From a virus, in IMG/VR virus record IMGVR_UViG_3300009370_002293, positions 1 through 64,000 of that record: 64,000 nt of DNA; one strand, written 5' to 3'. Under the pieces are notes generated by a model, which was not told the origin of the DNA, did no database searches, and worked only from the letters and a program-made list of their open reading frames with translations. A program made the translations under genes and the position numbers. Numbering within the stretch: position 1 is the first letter of the stretch; the number at the start of each line of letters is the position of its first letter. Positions 8,338 to 40,892 of this stretch are shown here, piece by piece.

Positions 8338-9069
8338 TTAATTAAGTTTTGACCGATTGGCAAGCACAAAACCGCTCTCGATTGCGTCATGGATAGCGGT
8401 GACGTTTGCTTTGTAAAGCAATCCAACAATTTTCCCCATAGGATCACGAAACCGCAAATCACTTTCATCGCCGTTGATAACCTCTGACCCGAAATCTTCA
8501 ACGGGCAACGCGCCAGCGTACACCACCGCAACATTCGCGCCCCTTTTCAAAAGATCACGCACAACCGAATCGGAGGTGTCCTCACTACGCGAAAACGTCA
8601 AATGATAGTTTTTCGGCAACTTGCCATTGCACCAATCTACCATCCGAGATAATGACTTAGTGTAATCATAAAATTGAAGCTCTGGAAAATGCTCCATAAT
8701 AGACGCGCCATCAATTTTGATTTTGTGCCACGGCAAATCACTTGTGCCGTTTAATCTTTCGCACGGAATTAAATCACGTTTTTTCGCCCGTTTAATAAAT
8801 GCGGCGGTTTCTTTTTTGAGTTGGGCCATGTACGTCTCACGATCACGCGCAAAAAATATGGTTTTATTCACACGCGCTTGCATAACGGGCGACATACGGC
8901 CACGCCCCGACGTAAACAAGCACGCCGCTCGACAACCTTCACTTGCGTTGGCGCACGTGTTAATTTCGCCGCTCGCATCACTAGGCGCGAGATAAGAGAT
9001 TGCCGTCATGTAACCACGTTGTTGGCCTTTAACGGTTTTTGCGTTTGTGTCGATTCCTAGAATTTGCAT
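8338..9069 (-). CDS. Gp88-like phage protein (radical-SAM-like Cys cluster)
   Basis: C..AS.GC...CL, RLNGTSD, FYDYTK, NYHLTFS and DGD..DLRF-like motifs; TTGACG-N17-TAAAAT promoter at 9080-9108. Confidence 0.8.
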   Translation of the reverse strand: MQILGIDTNAKTVKGQQRGYMTAISYLAPSDASGEINTCANASEGCRAACLFTSGRGRMSPVMQARVNKTIFFARDRETYMAQLKKETAAFIKRAKKRDLIPCERLNGTSDLPWHKIKIDGASIMEHFPELQFYDYTKSLSRMVDWCNGKLPKNYHLTFSRSEDTSDSVVRDLLKRGANVAVVYAGALPVEDFGSEVINGDESDLRFRDPMGKIVGLLYKANVTAIHDAIESGFVLANRSKLN

Positions 9070-9584
9070 AACGAGAGCGATTTTATCAAATGCCGTGGGT
9101 GGCGTCAATACTTTTTTTTTATTCGTCGCCGTACCATTCCACCATTGGCCGCGGATTGGTTGCCGCTTCACACTTGGCGCAATCGCATGGGGCATGGATC
9201 GTGGAACAACCCACGCTTAAAAATATAATAAAAAAGAATAGTAAAATTTTTTTCATTGTTTTAATCGTTGTGTGTAGGATTAGCACTTGTCAAATTATCA
9301 GAAATTTCTTAATTAAATGCAAGGCAAAAAAAGTTTTCGTAAAAAGGGGCATTTTCTCATCCGAGAAAACAGGGGAAAACACGAAAATTCAAACGAGGAA
9401 AACCTAGAAAAACAGGAGGATCCGAAAAAAATTTACCCCACTAAAAATCAAAAAATGGGCGGTAAAAAATATCACAAAATAAGAGGGCGGCGAATTTTGC
9501 CGTTTTTTTAATTTTTTCCTCAAAAACCAAATATTGGACTTTTTTGGATTTTTTGAGATTTTTGGCAATATTCTATTTTTTAAC

Positions 9585-9777
9585 TATATTTCAATATCGC
9601 GCGTTCTTAATTACTTATATTTTAGAATATCGCGTTCTTAATTACACGCCGCTTCCGCTTCCGCGCGCGCCCACACCACAAAAGTATATTTTACAAAATC
9701 AGGTTAGTAATTATATAATATTTTACAATATCCCATTCTTAATTATATAATATTTTAGGAAATCGCATTCCTAATTA
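9585..9777 (+). repeat. 29-bp direct repeat array A (5 copies)
   Basis: degenerate TATATTTT-N9-CRTT-N2-TAATTA at 9585, 9616, 9685, 9717, 9749. Confidence 0.8.
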
Positions 9778-9789
9778 GAAAAAGAAAAA

Positions 9790-9860
9790 GGCCAGTGGTG
9801 TTAAACTACCTCAACTGAAAAAGGCGTCCATGACTCTCTCATGACTCTATTCCACTGACC
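9790..9860 (-). ncRNA. candidate structured RNA, copy 1 (GAGAG-loop three-way junction)
   Basis: GGUCAGUGG/CCACUGGCC outer stem, CAUGA-GAGAG-UCAUG hairpin; covaries with the copy at 12006. Confidence 0.65.
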
Positions 9861-10077
9861 TATCGAGTGCGGGTACGTGGCGGATAACCAAACGCCGAGG
9901 CCGTCACTGATCTCATTTCCGTAACAACTCTAACCGCTCTCTAAATACCCGAGGCATCCTTAAAGGTTTTTGTAAATCCAACGGGCCTCAATAAATTCGA
10001 GATAACCTCTCCTAGCTTCCCATGACTTCACTCACCATCATAAATAATTACACTATTTAGAAGGAGTTAATTAGTAA

Positions 10078-11130
10078 TTAATTCAATTTTGTAGCAGCAG
10101 TTGGCACATCACATGGTTTAGGTAAAACAATCCTTATTGGTGTAGGTTTACTCAATGCCGCCGAGGTCGCCGCAAGGTCGCACAAATATGCTTCTATATT
10201 TTTTAAATACTCTTGGCCTTTTTTAGTTAATGCTCGACCCCCACGACCAATTTCCATAAGGCTATGTTTTTGCAAATACATTTCAAAATCTTTTTGCAAG
10301 CACGACCGTGTAAGACCTGTCTTTGAAGCAAGAAACGTAAGGCTACATTCCTTCTTCTCCTCAAGCAGACGAAGAACTTGCAACTCGATACGACTCAAGC
10401 CCAAGGGTAAAATCCCTAATGCGTGAGAGAGATGCTTCCAATCGTTTTTATTAAAATGATTTTTATTTTTAGATTTAAGAAAAGAAGAAATATGCGTACT
10501 CATTTTCTGTGCCTGACGCGCATTACCCCGAAGCACCGTTGCGATCTCTGGCAGCAGACCATCTTCAAATGTCTTGTCTTGATTTAAACGCTGAACAATT
10601 TCGCCCAACTCATCATACGAATACTCCTCCAGATCAACTCTTTCACACCTGTCCATTAACGCATGAAAAATATCCTGCGCTTCTGTCGTAGCAAACATGA
10701 AAGATTGCCTACTAAAATCAAAATCAATTACATACTCATCATACGAAAAGGTAGTACGATTATGCTCATTAGGATTTAACATAGTCAGCAACGCCATAGT
10801 TACATCCTTGGGTAATTCTGATGCCTCGTCCAAAAGCACGGTACATTCCTGTTGATGCACATGAGGAATAAGAATCTGATTAACAAATTGTTTTATATTC
10901 TTAATTGTTGAGCAATTAATCTCAAGAAAAGGTTTGGCCTTCCCCTTGCCCTTGAGATTCATTTTACTCCCCATCGCCTTGGCGAGAGTAGTTTTGCCGC
11001 ATCCCTTGGGCGCAACAAACATAAGGTGAGGCATCACATTGGTAGCGTGATAATTTTTTAAGTAAAAAGACAAACGCCGTTTGGCAACATCTTGCCCAAC
11101 AATTTTTGGAAACAGTTCAGTAGTAGTCAT
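10078..11130 (-). CDS. ruvB: RuvB-like Holliday junction branch-migration AAA+ ATPase
   Basis: IVGQD, Walker A PKGCGKTT, Walker B LLDEA, FATT, LMDR, RGNAR, C-terminal E.YL...L..GR winged helix. Confidence 0.75.
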   Translation of the reverse strand: MTTTELFPKIVGQDVAKRRLSFYLKNYHATNVMPHLMFVAPKGCGKTTLAKAMGSKMNLKGKGKAKPFLEINCSTIKNIKQFVNQILIPHVHQQECTVLLDEASELPKDVTMALLTMLNPNEHNRTTFSYDEYVIDFDFSRQSFMFATTEAQDIFHALMDRCERVDLEEYSYDELGEIVQRLNQDKTFEDGLLPEIATVLRGNARQAQKMSTHISSFLKSKNKNHFNKNDWKHLSHALGILPLGLSRIELQVLRLLEEKKECSLTFLASKTGLTRSCLQKDFEMYLQKHSLMEIGRGGRALTKKGQEYLKNIEAYLCDLAATSAALSKPTPIRIVLPKPCDVPTAATKLN

Positions 11131-11172
11131 GGTAGTTCAGTTATTATACTCGTAGTTGACGCGAGGTCAAGG

Positions 11173-11412
11173 CTAAAAATCGGTCAAGTCTTCTGACTTA
11201 AATTCGATTGGTGTGTGAGAGTTCATTTCTGCACGACCCTCTTTTGATCCAGTGCTAGTCTCTACACGCTTGCCCGTGATACCATTAGTCTCCGCAAATT
11301 TACGAGAAACTAAAATTAATGCACCCTCTTTAAAAGTCTCATTTAATATACCCAATGGGATTGAAACGAAGCTGGTTGCACCTTTTGTTTTACCCTGTTT
11401 TTTCGTTGCCAT
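11173..11412 (-). CDS. hypothetical protein
   Basis: leaderless ORF after a TTGACT..TACTAT promoter. Confidence 0.7.
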   Translation of the reverse strand: MATKKQGKTKGATSFVSIPLGILNETFKEGALILVSRKFAETNGITGKRVETSTGSKEGRAEMNSHTPIEFKSEDLTDF

Positions 11413-11489
11413 GTCCTCATAGTAGGGACATTTTTGAAATAAGTCAACATTTATTTTTATTTATTTTTAATTACTAAAAAATATAATAT

Positions 11490-11774
11490 TTATTGCGATT
11501 TATGAAAATTTTGATATTTTTCCCTCCAGTTTTCCATTGGTGCAGGAATCTTACGATTTGATTCGGCCAAGCTCATTACCTCTTTAGCAATCTCATCATG
11601 TATTTGGGCCGTTCTACCTCCCGCCTCATCGGCCTCCTCTGGGGTTAATTCTATGACAATTTCCTGTTTCCAAGGAGCAGCATTAGAAACCACATAATTC
11701 CACGCATCCTCGTACCTTAATACCAGACTATTATCTACGGGACGTTTTTTGGTCTTTTTCTTTTGGGCGGTCAT
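11490..11774 (-). CDS. hypothetical protein
   Basis: ORF from MTAQKKK. Confidence 0.65.
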   Translation of the reverse strand: MTAQKKKTKKRPVDNSLVLRYEDAWNYVVSNAAPWKQEIVIELTPEEADEAGGRTAQIHDEIAKEVMSLAESNRKIPAPMENWREKYQNFHKSQ

Positions 11775-11900
11775 GTCATTATTATTTACACTTTTTTTGC
11801 CAAAGTCAAACAAAATCAAAGTGCGCCAAAATATTTTATTTTATTTAAAAATAATCTAAATTAATCATTTTATTTAAAAATCGCGGCTCTTATATTGTGT

Positions 11901-12529
11901 TATATTTTAGTGAATTGCATTAGTAAATAGCACTATATTTTACAAAATCGCATTAGTAAATAAGCTCCATTATATTTAAGGAAATCGCATTAGTAAATAA
12001 GAAGAATAAGTGGTGTTCAATGATGGCACATACGAAGTTAAGCCCGTTCGTAACTCTCTTACGACTCTATTCCACTTATGCAAAACAAAGTAACAAATTT
12101 TTGTTTTATCCGCAAGCTATATTTTGCAAAAAATCATTCATAAATATAATAGTTTTGGCCGCACCAATTTTAATATATTTTAGCTATTTTCATTTGTAAA
12201 TAAGGCTTAATATATTTTGCTTTTTTTCATTCGTAAATAGAATAGGCTTGACATAAAATAAAATAATTTTTAATTTGATTTCACTTCAATGAACCTAAAC
12301 TAAAACTGGTTCTAGTTTAAGTTTGTTATGTATGTATTGAATTAAATAGCATATACTGCATAATAATATATGGAAAAGAATATAATTTTAAATAATTTTA
12401 AATAAATATATTTTTTCCATACCCAATTTGAATAATTATTCTTAATAAATTAAGTTCTTTACTCTATATTTTATACTATATCATTAGTAAATAGAAAGGG
12501 TATATTTTGGGCAAAAGCATTCATAATTA
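11901..12529 (+). repeat. 29-bp direct repeat array B (8 copies)
   Basis: TATATTTW-N9-CATT-N2-TAAWTA at 11901, 11934, 11971, 12118, 12174, 12211, 12465, 12501. Confidence 0.8.
12006..12079 (-). ncRNA. candidate structured RNA, copy 2, with own promoter
   Basis: AUAAGUGG/CCACUUAU stem, CGUAA-GAGAG-UUACG hairpin; TTGCGG-N17-TACTTT promoter just upstream. Confidence 0.7.
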
Positions 12530-12844
12530 AAGAAAAAACGAACAAATCCCACTCATCAAACCCTCTCTGAACCATTCCTTCATTTTCGTTTGTAAAGAAG
12601 GCATCATAGATAATTGATAGTATAAGCGCACACCCTGCAATTCCGATCCAAAGCATATAAAAAGATTCCTTTTTGCATATTACAAGGTAGGTTTTTTTAA
12701 TTAAAGGTAGGTTATGGTAATGTGTCTACTTTTTTAAGTCAGCTATAAGCATAATAAAATCATGCGCCAAACATACAAGCGCAATGCCAACAATAATAGG
12801 TAATACTAAAAGGGCGATCCATGTTACTAAAAAGCCCCAATTAA

Positions 12845-13087: not shown

Positions 13088-14269
13088 CTATTCATAGTCT
13101 CTAATAGCAATCACATAAGGAAAACGAGGTACACCGTCAGGTGTAAGATTAAAATACTTAATCGTAGCCTCTTTGCCTATTAGTGTATCTGCTTTTTTAA
13201 GTAAATCTGCTAGATACTCAAATGATCCTTTTACATTAGAGTGAAATTCTTTACCATTTTTATTCTTAAATTTAAAGTGTTTAATTGTTCCAGCACGATT
13301 ACCATCACCCTCCTCGTAACCAAGAATTTTATATTCTTCATCTACAAACTCTTTTCTTTTAAGCAAAAGAGAAGAACGCTTATTCTCGTAAGGCCCGTCG
13401 AGTCTAATCATTTGACCTTCGTAACCATGCTCAACATATTCTCCATACAATTCGTCGAGATGCTCTTTGCTCTCTACTTCGGTAGTCTCAACAATTACAA
13501 GACAATCTTCTTTGTCTAAACCCAAATTTGGAAATTGAGCATCCAAGATTGAAGTCCTATCAGAAAATGAATCCTTCTCTGTCCAGCACTTGCTTCCTGC
13601 AATCGAATCACCTATTACTGGCGCATCATAAATATGATATTGAATCATTTCCTTACTCTCTGACAAATGTTCATCAGTAAGATTCTGCTTACGAACAAGG
13701 TGAATGATTTTGTTAAAATCATCTTTGTAAGCATGATTATACAATTCGCCATCAAGAACAGCATTGGGATACTTATCAAAAAATGCCCCCAACGCCTCGC
13801 TAATATGCGGTACAGCAGTAATTGGTTTACCAGTACGAGTAAACAATCCATCTTTCATGGCAATGCAACGTATGCCGTCCAGCTTGGGTTGAGAGAATAC
13901 AGGCGCACCAATACCCTCCTCATCAATCTCAAACATTACTTCCTTCTGACGATTCTTGTTCTTGAAGTCCTGTGCAAGCATAGGCTCATAAAAACGCTTC
14001 TTGCTGATATTCTCCACGCTCAAATGGTATCCAGCTTCCAGTTTTTTCTTATGTTTTGCCTCTGCTTCTTTAAGTGCCTGTTCCGCACCAGTAGTAGCGT
14101 TTTTCTTTCCCTCATTCTTACCTTCACAAACAGTCCAGTTGTTTGTGATCTTTTTGCCGTCCTGTTGGCCCGAAATTGTACGATACTTGTTATCCTCAAC
14201 TTCAATCGTCCAAACTTGAGTTTTCCCAATCGTAGTTTTTTTGTAAAGTGTGGGTAATGTATTTTTCAT
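13088..14269 (-). CDS. lig: ATP-dependent DNA ligase
   Basis: PMLA, motif I QPKLDGIR, LDGELY, YEGQMIR, LLKRKEF, PRFP. Confidence 0.95.
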   Translation of the reverse strand: MKNTLPTLYKKTTIGKTQVWTIEVEDNKYRTISGQQDGKKITNNWTVCEGKNEGKKNATTGAEQALKEAEAKHKKKLEAGYHLSVENISKKRFYEPMLAQDFKNKNRQKEVMFEIDEEGIGAPVFSQPKLDGIRCIAMKDGLFTRTGKPITAVPHISEALGAFFDKYPNAVLDGELYNHAYKDDFNKIIHLVRKQNLTDEHLSESKEMIQYHIYDAPVIGDSIAGSKCWTEKDSFSDRTSILDAQFPNLGLDKEDCLVIVETTEVESKEHLDELYGEYVEHGYEGQMIRLDGPYENKRSSLLLKRKEFVDEEYKILGYEEGDGNRAGTIKHFKFKNKNGKEFHSNVKGSFEYLADLLKKADTLIGKEATIKYFNLTPDGVPRFPYVIAIRDYE

Positions 14270-21135: not shown

Positions 21136-21588
21136 CTACTTTTTTAAGTTTTTTTTCTCCTTTAAAACATGAGAGTATAAATTCTTCAAAAACCCTTGAT
21201 ATTCAGCCCATGTATAATGTTTCCACCCCTTGTCTTTAGAAAGGTTATACACCGCAAGTGTGCTTACCTCCCTATTAAATAAAATAATAAATACACTTAC
21301 ATTTAATTGTTTTGCCAAAGATGTGATAAATTTACCTTGGGTTTCTTTTTTGAACCTTTCTGTAATTGCGTTAAGATAATTAATTGGATATTCTTTTTTA
21401 TTTTTATTTAATTCACCCAAGGTCAACTCCATAAGCGCAATAGGAACTACTTCATTATCAATAATAGTATATTCCACATGGTCTATATCTTGAACCGCAC
21501 CAAATTTAGGAGTCATTTTGTGCCATCGAGCATCCCTGTATGGTTTTGCTCTGTCCTCGGTATCTTTTCTATTACGCTCTTTTGCCAT
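21136..21588 (-). CDS. hypothetical protein, possible PD-(D/E)xK fold
   Basis: DIDHVEY..ALMEL..Q pattern. Confidence 0.55.
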   Translation of the reverse strand: MAKERNRKDTEDRAKPYRDARWHKMTPKFGAVQDIDHVEYTIIDNEVVPIALMELTLGELNKNKKEYPINYLNAITERFKKETQGKFITSLAKQLNVSVFIILFNREVSTLAVYNLSKDKGWKHYTWAEYQGFLKNLYSHVLKEKKNLKK

Positions 21589-21624
21589 CTTATATCTTAT
21601 TTGGCGAATTTCTATTCTTAATTA

Positions 21625-21792: not shown

Positions 21793-21867
21793 AGTTGGGC
21801 TTATTAAAGAGTTTTTTTTGAATTAAAACAAGTAAATTATTTGGCAATTTTTTATTAGTAAATAAGG

Positions 21868-22782
21868 TTAATTTATTTTCATCTCTTTATTTACCATACG
21901 CTTGAGCTTTCTCATGGCTATTAATTCAATTTGTCTAATACGCTCTCGCGTAATACCAAATTTTTTTCCTATCACTTCCAGTGTTTGGGGTTTTCGTTCG
22001 TTAAAACCAAACCTTTTTTTAATAATATATTTTTCCCTGTATGTTAGCTTATCTAAACACTTATTTAGTATTGCATTGTTATTAAGTAATTCTGTTGCGG
22101 CTGACGGATCAAGATTTAGTGGATCAAAAATTTGATCTCCAACCTCCGAATCACCATCATCACCATTAAAAGAATCCTTTTTTAAAGGATTATTAAGAGA
22201 TAATATATTAAGAGAGGATTCTTGGAGTAAAAGTACCCTCTCTAGTGAAAGGTTAAATTTTTTAGCTATCTCTTTATTTGTGGGTTTTCTGTTATTTTCC
22301 TCCTCAAATTTATTAATATATTTTAAAATCTTTAATTTTTGTTGAACTGCACCGGCTGGCAACCTAATTGTTCTACCAGTATTTGCTAATGCCCTCATTA
22401 TGGATTGCTTGATCCAAAATCCAGCGTAATGGGAGAGTTTTGCCCCTTTGTCTAATTTAAATTTATCAACCGCTTTTATTAAACCAATGTTACCCTCGTT
22501 TATTAAGTCGGATAAATCCAAACCTAGCATTTTGTAATCGTTGGCTATTTTAATCACCAAGCGAAGGTTTGATTTTATTAAAATATCACGAGCTATTTTA
22601 GCTTTATTTCGCACCGAACCACCACAATTAGATTTATTATATGACCATTTATGTAAGGTTTTAAATAGGTCTATTTCTTCTTTACGGGATAAAAGTTTAT
22701 ATTTGCCCGCTTCTTGGTAATAAAGATTTAGTACGTCCTCTGAATTTGAGGGGGAGTAGACTTGTGTAGTTGAAGTATCCAT
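21868..22782 (-). CDS. sigma70-family RNA polymerase sigma factor (RpoD/RpoS-like)
   Basis: NLRLVIKIA, DLINEGNIGLIKAVDKF, WIKQSI, TLEVIG..ITRERIRQIE. Confidence 0.95.
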   Translation of the reverse strand: MDTSTTQVYSPSNSEDVLNLYYQEAGKYKLLSRKEEIDLFKTLHKWSYNKSNCGGSVRNKAKIARDILIKSNLRLVIKIANDYKMLGLDLSDLINEGNIGLIKAVDKFKLDKGAKLSHYAGFWIKQSIMRALANTGRTIRLPAGAVQQKLKILKYINKFEEENNRKPTNKEIAKKFNLSLERVLLLQESSLNILSLNNPLKKDSFNGDDGDSEVGDQIFDPLNLDPSAATELLNNNAILNKCLDKLTYREKYIIKKRFGFNERKPQTLEVIGKKFGITRERIRQIELIAMRKLKRMVNKEMKIN

Positions 22783-23108: not shown

Positions 23109-24143
23109 TTAAATTTTAGATTTAATATAATTACTTATCCATTCGGGGTTAAAGTAAGTGTCTACAATTTTATTTTGTTGTTCTAATGCTTTGTCGTATA
23201 AATTATTATTATTTTTTAATTGTTCGTGTTTTGATAAAAATTCTTCAACGCTATAAAATATAGTATTTTCGTCAAACTTTTCATCAAAAGGAAAATTAAC
23301 GTGCATTAATTGTTGCATCATTAAAACTCCAGCAGAAAGTCCTTCAAAAAAAACCTTACACAAATGACCGCTCCCATTTAAATGTAGTGCAAACTTACCC
23401 TCTTTAAAAACATTACTAAACATTTCGGTGGGAACACCGCTCACAGGCAAAACTATTTCTTCTTTTTTTTCATTATAAATTTCTATGACTTTTTTCATAA
23501 AATCATATCTATTACACAACCTGAATACATCATCATGTTTTCCTCTAAAAATTACATGAGAACCCCACACGCAATAATTTGAACGCTTATGAAGGTCAAT
23601 GGGGCAAACTCTTTCTTTATAGAGTAACCAAGTGGGGTCTATTTCTCCAAAAACAACAAACGGAAACGGGTAAACATTATCGGCGTAATCAAATGAACAA
23701 GTAAACCTATGTTCTCTTTTAAAAACGGCATCTATATTTAGATTGTAATCATTAGTAAATACGTCAATACCCCGTGAACACAAGGGGAAATCCGAATAAT
23801 CAATTATAATTATTTTTTTAAAATTAATGTGGGAAAGCCGCGAAAGAATTTCCCCCCATTTATCATGTGAAAAACTATCTGTAATTGGGTCGCTACCACC
23901 CCATTCTGATGATAAGTCTTGGTTTACAAAGGGCAAATCCATTATCAGACATAAAATATCATATTTTTTTGACGTTTTATTAATGGGGCAAATGTCAATC
24001 CCATAACGCTGCTTAAAAAAGGCTTCATCCTGAAAAGTGCCGCTCCCCCATAAGGAGGGGGCAGCGACATAATCCCCTTTTTCAAAAAGGAGTGTTGCAG
24101 AAGGAAAATTCTGCAAGGGGTCAACAATTAAGGCTGTAGACAT
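23109..24143 (-). CDS. putative glycosyltransferase
   Basis: FKRE, FALHLNG.G..C..FFEGLSAG C-terminal GT-B-like motif. Confidence 0.55.
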   Translation of the reverse strand: MSTALIVDPLQNFPSATLLFEKGDYVAAPSLWGSGTFQDEAFFKQRYGIDICPINKTSKKYDILCLIMDLPFVNQDLSSEWGGSDPITDSFSHDKWGEILSRLSHINFKKIIIIDYSDFPLCSRGIDVFTNDYNLNIDAVFKREHRFTCSFDYADNVYPFPFVVFGEIDPTWLLYKERVCPIDLHKRSNYCVWGSHVIFRGKHDDVFRLCNRYDFMKKVIEIYNEKKEEIVLPVSGVPTEMFSNVFKEGKFALHLNGSGHLCKVFFEGLSAGVLMMQQLMHVNFPFDEKFDENTIFYSVEEFLSKHEQLKNNNNLYDKALEQQNKIVDTYFNPEWISNYIKSKI

Positions 24144-33126: not shown

Positions 33127-33318
33127 CTATTTAAACTTTTTATATCGTTTATACCCCCACCATACTTTTCTGAGCGTCCACTCTTTAAAAGCAGCCTCAG
33201 GCCACTCCCCCCTTTTTTTTAAAATAAAAATCTCTTTTTCTGTTTCTCGAATTTTGCGAGAAAAATACTTCCGCACTGAATATTTCGGAACCCATGATGG
33301 TAAATGGAAATCACTCAC
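33127..33318 (-). CDS. hypothetical protein
   Basis: ORF. Confidence 0.5.
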   Translation of the reverse strand: MSDFHLPSWVPKYSVRKYFSRKIRETEKEIFILKKRGEWPEAAFKEWTLRKVWWGYKRYKKFK

Positions 33319-33721
33319 TCCAATGCTCCTTTATTACCTTTATGGGCGTCTCTCCTAAGTACCATATTTGGCAACTATGTATTCCTAAACAGGGCCAATT
33401 CATCACGTTTTGCATCATAAAAGTATAATCAAGCCCATTTTTATATTTAAATTTAATAAACGCACATTCTATGTTGACTTGTTTATCTTCTATGTACCTG
33501 ACTAATATTTCAGGTTTGTGTTGTATAAACCCCTCTATAACCAACTTACAATGTTCTGTTGACGCATCTGGGCTTTTTGTCATTTTAACAGACTCAAGAC
33601 CAGACCCGTCTTTGGCCACCCCATTTAACAACAAATAAATAACATATTTTTCATGTAAATCATTTAATTTTTCATAAAAAATTTTATCTACCTCGCCTGA
33701 AAATATATAGCGCTCTGTCAC
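33311..33721 (-). CDS. hypothetical protein
   Basis: ORF. Confidence 0.65.
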   Translation of the reverse strand: MTERYIFSGEVDKIFYEKLNDLHEKYVIYLLLNGVAKDGSGLESVKMTKSPDASTEHCKLVIEGFIQHKPEILVRYIEDKQVNIECAFIKFKYKNGLDYTFMMQNVMNWPCLGIHSCQIWYLGETPIKVIKEHWSE

Positions 33722-40199: not shown

Positions 40200-40892
40200 T
40201 CATCGATATTTTTTGCCAAGTCGTTGCAAATACTTTCGAGCATAAAAAAGCCGTGACATTATAGTTCCTACTGGCACATGCAATAACTTTGCTATCTCAG
40301 GGTAACTCAACTGGTCTACCTCATATAAAATTATAACCTCACGATGTTTGGGTTCTAACTTATCTAATAATTTAGTGCTTAGTTTAATTTTTGATTTTTT
40401 TATATCCTTATCCACCCTTTTTTTACTCGGGGTCTCCATGTCAATCAAACCTCCACCCTCTACTGGTATTCCTTTTATATGCGCTTCCCCGTTTCGAATA
40501 GTTAAATTTTTCCCCGCATTTGATGCCGTATGGCCGCCGTCAGTGGATTCATGTTCTAAAACGGAGTTATCGGAGGATATGTATACAAATTTATGTTCGT
40601 GCCTTTGTCTTTTACGCCAATCATCATAAAAATTATTTCGTGCAATGGCATTAGCCCAGACTTTGAAGGTGGACTTAAACTTAAATTGACTAATTCTTTG
40701 CCAGCTTTTTATTAAAGTTTGTTGAAATATTTCTTCTTCTATTTCTAAATTCCCTTTTGTATAACTCTTAATCCACCCCCTTATGTATTCCTCATTCCTT
40801 ATGATAAGTTCTTCGAAAGCCGTTTCGTCTTTAGCTTGGGCTAATTTTATTAATTGTTTCTCCTCTTTTTCCTTGTAATCCGAGGTAACCAT
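40200..40892 (-). CDS. ECF (RpoE-like) sigma factor
   Basis: AFEELI, F.FKSTFKVW..IARN, LSYPEIA.LL.VPVGTIMSRLFYARK. Confidence 0.92.
   Translation of the reverse strand: MVTSDYKEKEEKQLIKLAQAKDETAFEELIIRNEEYIRGWIKSYTKGNLEIEEEIFQQTLIKSWQRISQFKFKSTFKVWANAIARNNFYDDWRKRQRHEHKFVYISSDNSVLEHESTDGGHTASNAGKNLTIRNGEAHIKGIPVEGGGLIDMETPSKKRVDKDIKKSKIKLSTKLLDKLEPKHREVIILYEVDQLSYPEIAKLLHVPVGTIMSRLFYARKYLQRLGKKYR

Follow-up and report, generated by a model that had tools for sequence, protein, structure and literature searches.

What the short direct repeats on either side of a stand-alone RuvB-like gene are for is the question raised by the first 64 kb (the window) of IMG/VR record IMGVR_UViG_3300009370_002293, a 99,812-bp linear viral contig of an uncultured marine phage. 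An earlier note on this DNA had described thirteen co-oriented, iteron-like 29-bp units next to copies of a structured RNA, and had taken them for a protein-binding lattice such as a replication origin or terminase or partition sites. We find that the units are a real, directional and conserved cis-element tied to the RuvB-like operon and to the structured RNA. Their motif, statistics, strand, conservation and positions are read directly from the DNA, and from these we infer a start of transcription; the element itself is well supported, and its function is putative. With about as much doubt as belief, we read the units as tandem minus-strand promoters in composite terminator-promoter cassettes, rather than as iterons. 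We do so because each unit holds two blocks at a fixed distance, because the units always lie in the orientation of the genes, because they are placed after terminators, tRNAs and the structured RNA, and because single copies stand before RNA genes and open reading frames (ORFs).

Searching the window with the 29-bp pattern, allowing up to 3 mismatches, gives 19 matches where 1.34 are expected from 100 shuffles (standard deviation 1.06, largest count 4). This comparison with background is one that the earlier note had proposed, and the thirteen co-oriented units are found at the positions it had given. These are the good copies, with 0-2 mismatches (the pattern as then written reads on the plus strand, starting at the first coordinate of each line below); a weak 14th copy with 3 mismatches lies at 12407. 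The rest of the contig holds no second cluster of units, just scattered 3-mismatch matches. In the order in which the minus strand is read, and named here by array (A to E), the units are:

Unit A1, 12501..12529, minus strand: 0 mismatches; overlaps the 3' end of a 61-aa ORF (12471-12656); exact match to TTR-NN-AATR-N10-AAATA
Unit A2, 12465..12493, minus strand: last unit ahead of an AT-rich block
Unit B1, 12211..12239, minus strand: TTTACG-17-TATATT
Unit B2, 12174..12202, minus strand: TTTACA-17-TATATT
Unit B3, 12118..12146, minus strand: 39 nt upstream of structured RNA copy 2
Unit C1, 11971..11999, minus strand: begins 6 nt after RNA copy 2; TTTACT-17-TATAAT
Unit C2, 11934..11962, minus strand: TTTACT-17-TATAGT
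Unit C3, 11901..11929, minus strand: last unit ahead of the three-gene RuvB-like operon
Unit D1, 9749..9777, minus strand: first 22 bases identical in a relative, locus L160
Unit D2, 9717..9745, minus strand: found by motif and by a promoter-consensus scan
Unit D3, 9685..9713, minus strand: motif match
Unit E1, 9616..9644, minus strand: motif match
Unit E2, 9585..9613, minus strand: weakest of the 13 (2 mismatches)

Measured from start to start, neighbours are 31, 69, 32 and 32 bp apart in the 9.5-kb group and 33, 37, 147, 56, 37, 254 and 36 bp apart in the group at 11.9-12.5 kb. The three-turn spacing of 31-33 bp that had been noted for several repeats thus applies to four neighbouring pairs, while three other pairs stand at 36-37 bp (about 3.5 turns), and because both spacings occur the units share no single helical phase. 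Comparing the 13 copies with one another, we find a pairwise identity of 0.884 at the 20 motif positions and of 0.339 at the other 15, where composition alone predicts 0.272. Since the motif positions are alike and the rest is nearly random, the copies are old and each held by selection, rather than recent duplications.

The minus-strand form of the unit is TAtTTAcKAATG-N8-TAAAATATA, with the N8 stretch variable and AT-rich. Within it the two blocks at fixed spacing are TTTACW-17 bp-TATAnT, and all 13 units can be read as (T/A)TTA(C/A)N-17-TAT(A/T)nN; the copies at 11.9-12.5 kb take the form TTTACT/TTTACA/TTTACG-17-TATAAT/TATAGT/TATATT, and an ATTAAG variant is also among the 13. On the minus strand, 6 of the 13 reach the threshold of the promoter-consensus scan and the others fall below it. 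The contig also carries a second, canonical promoter-like class, TTGAC(T/C) followed by an A-rich 16-17-bp spacer and TAnnAT, before many minus-strand genes, including all three of the RuvB-like operon; given that this class exists, the 29-bp unit is a class of its own. Between the canonical -10-like hexamer and the ATG there are mostly 6-9 nt and at most 12, so few that mRNAs with no leader or a very short one are suggested.

Canonical TTGACn-17-TAnnAT sites, at 853, 2901, 3510, 11170, 11447, 16209, 17162, 21135 and 25848, minus strand: near the ATG

Some other readings of the unit itself were dropped. An RNA hairpin inside each unit finds no covariation, its arms being invariant A-U runs. 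The AAATA core resembles the core of T4-type late promoters; the upstream positions differ, and the contig offers no late genes for comparison. A clustered regularly interspaced short palindromic repeat (CRISPR) array was likewise rejected, since the units of the window abut or have unequal gaps; a repeat-spacer array occurs only in one relative, locus L144.

To see what the units stand next to, we consider the two subjects that they flank, the RuvB-like operon and the structured RNA:

First operon ORF, 11490..11819 (likely ATG at 11774), minus strand: TTGACT-17-AATAAT site at 11809-11781; no family match
Conserved small protein of 79 aa, 11173..11412, minus strand: TTGACT-17-TACTAT site 6 nt before the ATG
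RuvB-like AAA+ ATPase gene, 10078..11130, minus strand: matches to AAA, RuvB_C and RuvB_N
Structured RNA copy 1, 9790..9859, minus strand: 88.4 bits, followed by a U-run
Structured RNA copy 2, 12005..12079, minus strand: 76.5 bits; closing stem and two hairpins, then a U-rich run

On the minus strand, RNA copy 1 folds at -26.4 kcal/mol (z -2.07), against -16.3 kcal/mol (z -0.58) on the plus strand. Compensatory changes are found at 12 of 17 pairs, and G-U pairs occur on the minus (RuvB) strand only. A covariance model built from four copies and run on the window and 72 sources (70 related loci and 2 loci with the rest of the contig) returns 29 matches, every one on the RuvB strand; the RNA usually lies 100-350 nt downstream of the RuvB-like gene, often as two tandem copies. 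At the gathering score Rfam recognises no family in 9200-12800 and only two tRNAs at 21.6 kb, other matches being at chance level (E 1.6-4.2), and a scan of viral contigs with the RNA consensus pattern gives 0 exact matches.

Each array had been said to abut the 3' end of an RNA copy directly. Two do, the array at 11901-11999 (RNA at 12005-12079) and the one at 9685-9777 (RNA at 9790-9859); those at 9585-9644, 12118-12239 and 12465-12529 do not, and 12118-12239 lies on the 5' side of the second RNA. The RNA of relatives has a -10-like hexamer 7-10 nt before its 5' end. In L107 and L098 the RNA is preceded by a canonical TTGACA-17-TATAAT or TATATT promoter, and in L108, L104 and L114 the -35 is only approximate. 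Copy 2 in the window has no good canonical promoter in front of it, and unit B3 stands 39 nt upstream. The places that hold promoters before the RNA of relatives thus hold 29-bp units here, which puts the units where promoters stand.

The element can be followed further with the generalised pattern TTR-NN-AATG-N10-AAATA, which ten of the 13 units match exactly; those at 9585 and 9616 have one mismatch, and the one at 9685 falls outside the pattern. Across the contig, where 0.65 exact matches would be expected over both strands together, the minus strand has 17 and the plus strand 2. All 17 lie within the minus-coded half of the contig, which gives way to plus-strand genes at about 50.5 kb. Seven of them are outside the 13 units, and the positions of four of these are informative; they are listed here with a diverged copy and with the stretch that follows it:

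Single copy, 33365..33388, minus strand: 47 nt upstream of ORF 33127-33318
Single copy, 23735..23758, minus strand: inside ORF 23109-24143, upstream of the sigma-70-like gene; 1 mismatch to the pattern of the earlier note (23733)
Single copy, 21838..21861, minus strand: exact; 46 nt upstream of a tRNA-Leu/tRNA-Arg pair
Single copy, 21598..21621, minus strand: between tRNA-Arg, 3 nt before it, and the ATG of ORF 21136-21588, 9 nt after it
Diverged copy with 1 mismatch, 10054..10077, minus strand: directly after the RuvB-like stop codon, upstream of the conserved non-coding RNA region
Conserved non-coding stretch leading into RNA copy 1, 9860..10053, minus strand: aligned to L160

In L160, whose RuvB-like protein is 76% identical, an exact copy stands at the same place after the RuvB-like stop, and the aligned non-coding columns have a mean identity of 80%. 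The window and L160 share one order: motif at the stop, conserved non-coding region, structured RNA, U-run, first array unit.

Presence in related phages was another check that had been proposed, and here too the element holds. Our relatives are 70 loci totalling 564,551 bp, 64 of them viral loci reached through a 27-member RuvB-like alignment (alignment A1, distinct from unit A1) and 6 metagenome loci reached through the single protein. In 16 of the 70 we find 32 distinct exact matches, at 1-6 copies per locus, every one oriented with the RuvB-like gene; the opposite strand has 0, and a backwards-pattern control also gives 0. Three whole records (G001-G003) give 16 matches, all in the RuvB orientation, with the control again at 0. 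The motif core is retained in relatives whose RuvB-like protein is 49-65% identical. The motif directly follows tRNA 3' ends in L135, L138 and L123 and clear terminator hairpins in L104, L114, L129 and L094; judged by eye, about 12 of 36 first-in-cluster sites lie within about 35 nt after an intrinsic terminator hairpin, a tRNA 3' end or the structured RNA. A 28-nt motif pattern scanned against viral contigs gives 93 single chance matches apart from L013, and L013 with its 11 degenerate copies was set aside as an unrelated, extremely AT-rich tandem array in a giant-virus bin.

Drawing these results together, RNA polymerase would start at the units, on the minus strand, which is that of all neighbouring genes. 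Each unit would consist of an upstream box, TAWTTA-NN-AATG (at about -34 to -26), and at fixed distance a -10-like block, TAAAA-TATAnT. Units would be stacked head to tail in twos or threes right after the end of an upstream transcription unit (structured RNA, tRNA or ORF end), and the cassettes would sit at the head and the tail of the RuvB-like operon and around the two small-RNA copies. The reader of the units could be the host sigma factor or one of two phage sigma-like proteins, a 304-aa sigma-70-like protein (regions 1.2-4) and a 230-aa protein (regions 2 and 4):

Sigma-like genes, 21868-22782 and 40200-40892: two candidates

We also considered whether sigma-like proteins and motif occur together, and rejected the idea: a sigma-70-like protein is present in G004-G007 and a second sigma-like protein in G007 and G008, the strict motif occurs in G007 only, and the sigma-like proteins of these five relatives therefore do not track it.

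Several observations weigh against reading the units as promoters. Units that abut at 31-37 bp cannot all hold RNA polymerase at once, and L129, at 49% RuvB-like identity, again has triplets of units that abut at 31-33 bp. The likeness to sigma-70 promoters is itself loose: promoter-like hexamers occur on both strands (29 sites, against 14.0 ± 3.6 in shuffles), including two 11-of-12 matches on the plus strand inside array D, and since AT-rich DNA yields such pairs on both strands the likeness is suggestive, not decisive. The last T of TATAnT is present in 8 of the 13 copies and often absent in relatives (L129, L144). What is conserved across the lineage is AATG plus AAATA, while the -35-like hexamer varies (TTGTGA, TTAGGA, TTATGA), and to our knowledge this core fits no known sigma consensus. 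The operon genes have canonical promoter-like sites of their own, so that extra promoters are not obviously needed. The motif is also locus-specific, with 4 of 5 matches in G007 lying within 3.5 kb of the RuvB-like gene, and it is no genome-wide promoter class: G005, G006 and G008 show background only, and G004 shows no match (G007, at 158,301 bp, is complete, G005, G006 and G008 are complete or nearly so, and G004 is 83% complete). Finally, runs of 5-12 nAAATAn heptamers at a pitch of about 10-13 bp, one or more per locus, are present in 26 of 64 relatives. In 22 of those 26 loci a run lies downstream of the RuvB-like gene, usually after a terminator, and such runs look like a binding array or bent DNA, not like promoters.

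Heptamer runs in relatives, L094:5359-5433, L146:5137-5215, L129:5030-5133, L099:5145-5276 and others

How far do these points favour other explanations? A replication origin is unlikely, and it could take two forms: the units could be iterons for an unrecognised initiator, or they could be promoters whose transcript opens the AT-rich block and primes synthesis. The AT-rich stretch that had been noticed is indeed there, and at 16.5% G+C it is the lowest 200-bp window of the contig (mean 37.1%, standard deviation 5.7).

AT-rich block, 12253..12452: downstream of A1/A2 on the minus strand; holds a 14-nt inverted repeat

That this window lies directly downstream of A1/A2, followed by B1-B3, speaks for an origin and counts against units that are promoters and nothing else. 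The three lowest-GC windows of G007 (119427, 119674, 125007) also flank its RuvB-like operon, the locus is among the largest non-coding regions, and genes for DNA transactions adjoin it (the RuvB-like gene and DNA ligase). In G007, however, the order is the other way round, with the AT-rich blocks upstream of the motif copies. Among the neighbours no Rep-, DnaA- or Orc-like initiator gene was recognised, the AAA+ neighbour matching RuvB; helicase, primase and polymerase are about 70 kb distant, and the spacing of the units is not uniform. Cumulative GC skew takes no turn at the locus in the contig or in G007, which is weak evidence because the skew largely follows gene orientation. Single copies at tRNAs and ORFs would be left unexplained. 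Of the two forms, an origin here would most plausibly be of the transcription-activated kind known from T4 oriF/oriG or from T7, and this second form keeps the units as promoters and so does not conflict with the reading that we prefer. The RNA-primed replication suggested in the earlier note may apply to the array that points into the AT-rich block.

A second rival is a lattice of cooperative operator sites, at which a phage DNA-binding protein (the 79-aa protein is the candidate) would control the small-RNA and RuvB-like genes and the -35/-10 likeness would be incidental. Such a lattice would account for the 20 conserved positions of a locus-specific motif, for the abutting triplets in distant relatives and for the helically phased nAAATAn arrays at the syntenic place. 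The unit arms, moreover, hold TATTTA and TAAA(A)TA, reverse complements about two helical turns apart, and the small basic, acidic-tailed protein is encoded upstream of the RuvB-like gene in 24 of 29 pairable loci. We nonetheless think this improbable: no DNA-binding family or fold was matched by the 79-aa protein, the operon's canonical promoters lie clear of the units (92 nt off at the nearest), the mixed spacings put neighbours on different helical faces, and a directional core, with AATG in one half only, placed after terminators and tRNAs better fits start signals. Sites for packaging (pac/cos, terminase) or partition have in their favour just the generic fact of clustered direct repeats in a large non-coding region, and are extremely improbable: no terminase or partition gene was found in the contig (about 64% complete by the CheckV estimate), the locus is internal in G007, at about 120 of 158 kb in a genome that IMG/VR classes with direct terminal repeats, and the single copies at tRNAs and ORFs would again have no explanation. 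That the units are functionless leftovers of slippage or recombination between repeated cassettes is very improbable as well. Multiple degraded promoter copies in the stem-loop cassettes of T4-type phages are put down to recombinational slippage in PMC4122927; here the motif positions are 88% identical while the others are near-random, and the core is kept in relatives at 49-65% RuvB-like identity. Of the lattice proposed at the outset, then, the directional conserved element tied to the RuvB-like operon and RNA, with an AT-rich block adjoining, remains, and the iteron, terminase or partition function as then worded does not, given the uneven spacing, the lack of a recognised initiator, replication genes about 70 kb off, a skew without a turn and the internal position in G007.

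The genes between the arrays deserve a closer description. A profile comparison aligns the RuvB-like protein with RuvB chains along its full length (residues 7-310, E 1e-16 to 1e-18), and it is not Orc/Cdc6/DnaA-like. Its family is abundant in marine metagenomes, with 2,336 homologues at E<=1e-10 and top matches 60-79% identical. In cultured phage there is no close homologue, the best tblastn identity in the phage collection being below 26%, and with the single protein as query we obtain 0 related loci from viral contigs and 6 short loci from metagenome contigs. The 79-aa protein has a basic N-terminus, a motif SFVxVxLxELNRVLKxxAxVxVSRRxAE and an acidic tail ending in D/E-W/F; it belongs to no Pfam or PHROGs family, and its model (predicted local distance difference test, pLDDT, 66) gives no Foldseek or VIA-align match. 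Of the 29 loci with a pairable upstream ORF, 24 have a member of its family immediately before the RuvB-like gene, and the remaining 5 upstream ORFs are unrelated (L143, L146, L151, L161 and one more). This is the position that RuvA takes in bacterial ruvAB operons. Upstream of the RuvB-like operon of one distant relative, a tandem array of an approximately 13-nt G-rich unit (GGGGGGCAAGTC-type) is seen at L123:2241-2484.

The arrays occupy the largest non-coding regions of the contig, and two stretches near arrays D and E are distinguished by their composition:

G-rich spacer between arrays D and E, 9645..9684, minus strand: from sequence reading
Non-coding stretch downstream of array E, 9300..9584, no strand assigned: A-tracts and T-tracts at a pitch of about 10-11 bp, from sequence reading

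A G-rich island after a degenerate unit is also present in L094, and one is seen in L104 too; as a general feature it was rejected, since 60 G-rich and 34 C-rich islands are scattered across the relatives.

The phage gene set includes rIIA/rIIB, an ATP-dependent DNA ligase (at 13088-14269, near the arrays), NrdAB and a UvsX-like recombinase, and the contig also encodes a DnaB-like helicase, a primase and a DNA polymerase, these last being about 70 kb from the array locus. DNA similarity of 9200-12800 to isolated phages was not found, and no isolated phage is close to this one. A search for the T4 Gp23 family in five relatives gave no match, and as its control matched nowhere it is uninformative on T4-likeness. 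A literature search on RuvB, marine phage and sigma factor returned no paper on this lineage among the matches listed. Two further observations lie apart from the units. A short minus-strand ORF at 9119-9256, with no family match, starts with a signal peptide of the lipoprotein type, and it overlaps the beginning of a GP88-family gene (8338-9195). Outside the window, contig positions 84350-84405 (L159:2350-2405) hold what resembles the 3' half of a tRNA (T-arm and acceptor end), immediately ahead of an ORF at 84410 and upstream of the helicase-primase genes.

In one relative the same non-coding hub upstream of the RuvB-like operon holds a CRISPR-like array on the RuvB strand, at L144:1591-2157 (G007:120215-120781), with 9 copies of a 36-nt repeat at a period of 65-67 nt, each spacer being unique and about 30 nt long. 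A 502-aa ORF some 11 kb upstream of this array, at L171:8130-9638 (G007:108130-109638), matches Cas12u4/Cas12f (TnpB-like) models (PADLOC E 4.6e-64); the window's own contig contains no homologue of this ORF. The 3' end of the repeat is a handle motif, A[CG]T[AG]C[AG]ACAC, of which L144 has 22 copies, all of them on the RuvB strand, and L119 has 8. It also stands directly after copies of the 29-bp-type motif at L144:1412, 2175 and 2232, and each such pair of motif and handle resembles a lone guide-like unit that brings a start signal along.

Should the units prove to be promoters, the lineage would gain its first regulatory signal and a means of predicting its small-RNA genes, among them the covarying RNA, the tRNAs and, in one relative, the guide-like units. 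Should one array double as a transcription-activated origin, initiation in the T4/T7 manner would extend to an unrelated marine group, and the role of the stand-alone phage RuvB would become testable. A more specific proposal, which we regard as doubtful, is that this abundant uncultured marine lineage uses the locus as a control hub reserved for its small RNAs and the RuvB-like operon. The units would then be a private promoter class read by a phage-made factor (a sigma-like protein, or an activator replacing -35 recognition) and would fire into the AT-rich block, where an R-loop would start replication and the small acidic-tailed protein and RuvB-like motor would act on it, in effect a T4-oriF-like origin made from unrelated parts.

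How do the units compare with systems already described? T7 has tandem early promoters, A1, A2 and A3, co-oriented at the head of a transcription unit and about 100 bp apart. The units resemble them in being several co-oriented putative promoters at such a head and differ in that they abut at 31-37 bp, which would leave room for one RNA polymerase per group at a time. Plasmid and phage iterons, and the 12-nt direct repeats of T4 oriE (PMC3016281), share with the arrays the clustering of direct repeats by an AT-rich region, and relatives have evenly spaced short repeats at the syntenic site; unlike iterons, the unit is 29 bp long and bipartite, its spacing is irregular, no initiator gene adjoins, and single copies stand before tRNAs and ORFs. 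Transcription-activated origins offer another parallel. T4 oriF/oriG consist of a middle-mode promoter and a downstream unwinding element (PMC3016281), and every T7 origin requires a promoter, the primary origins being phi1.1A and phi1.1B (PMC8373140). In sequence layout alone, A1/A2 likewise point into the most AT-rich 200 bp, and the upstream box at about -34 to -26, with its separate -10, sits about where the MotA box of T4 middle-mode promoters does (PMC3016281). In contrast to T4 oriF/oriG, no match to MotA or AsiA was found in the contig (64% complete), and most units have no AT-rich block after them.

The closest described system is the promoter-early stem-loop (PeSL) cassette of T4-type phages, in which a stem-loop ends one unit and a conserved promoter follows directly, as arrays C and D follow the structured RNA here. 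PeSL cassettes also occur in many copies per genome, all in gene orientation, and the early promoter consensus of the T4/PST promoter-stem-loop cassettes, TTTACW-N17-TAYWAT (PMC4122927), matches the register of the 29-bp unit. The two systems differ in arrangement and in detail. PeSL cassettes stand one per small ORF, whereas the units here are stacked in abutting twos and threes in two non-coding regions, along with five scattered single copies; the core conserved in this lineage is AATG-N10-AAATA, not a sigma-70 consensus; and what takes the place of the stem-loop is not a simple hairpin but a covarying RNA of about 70 nt or a tRNA.

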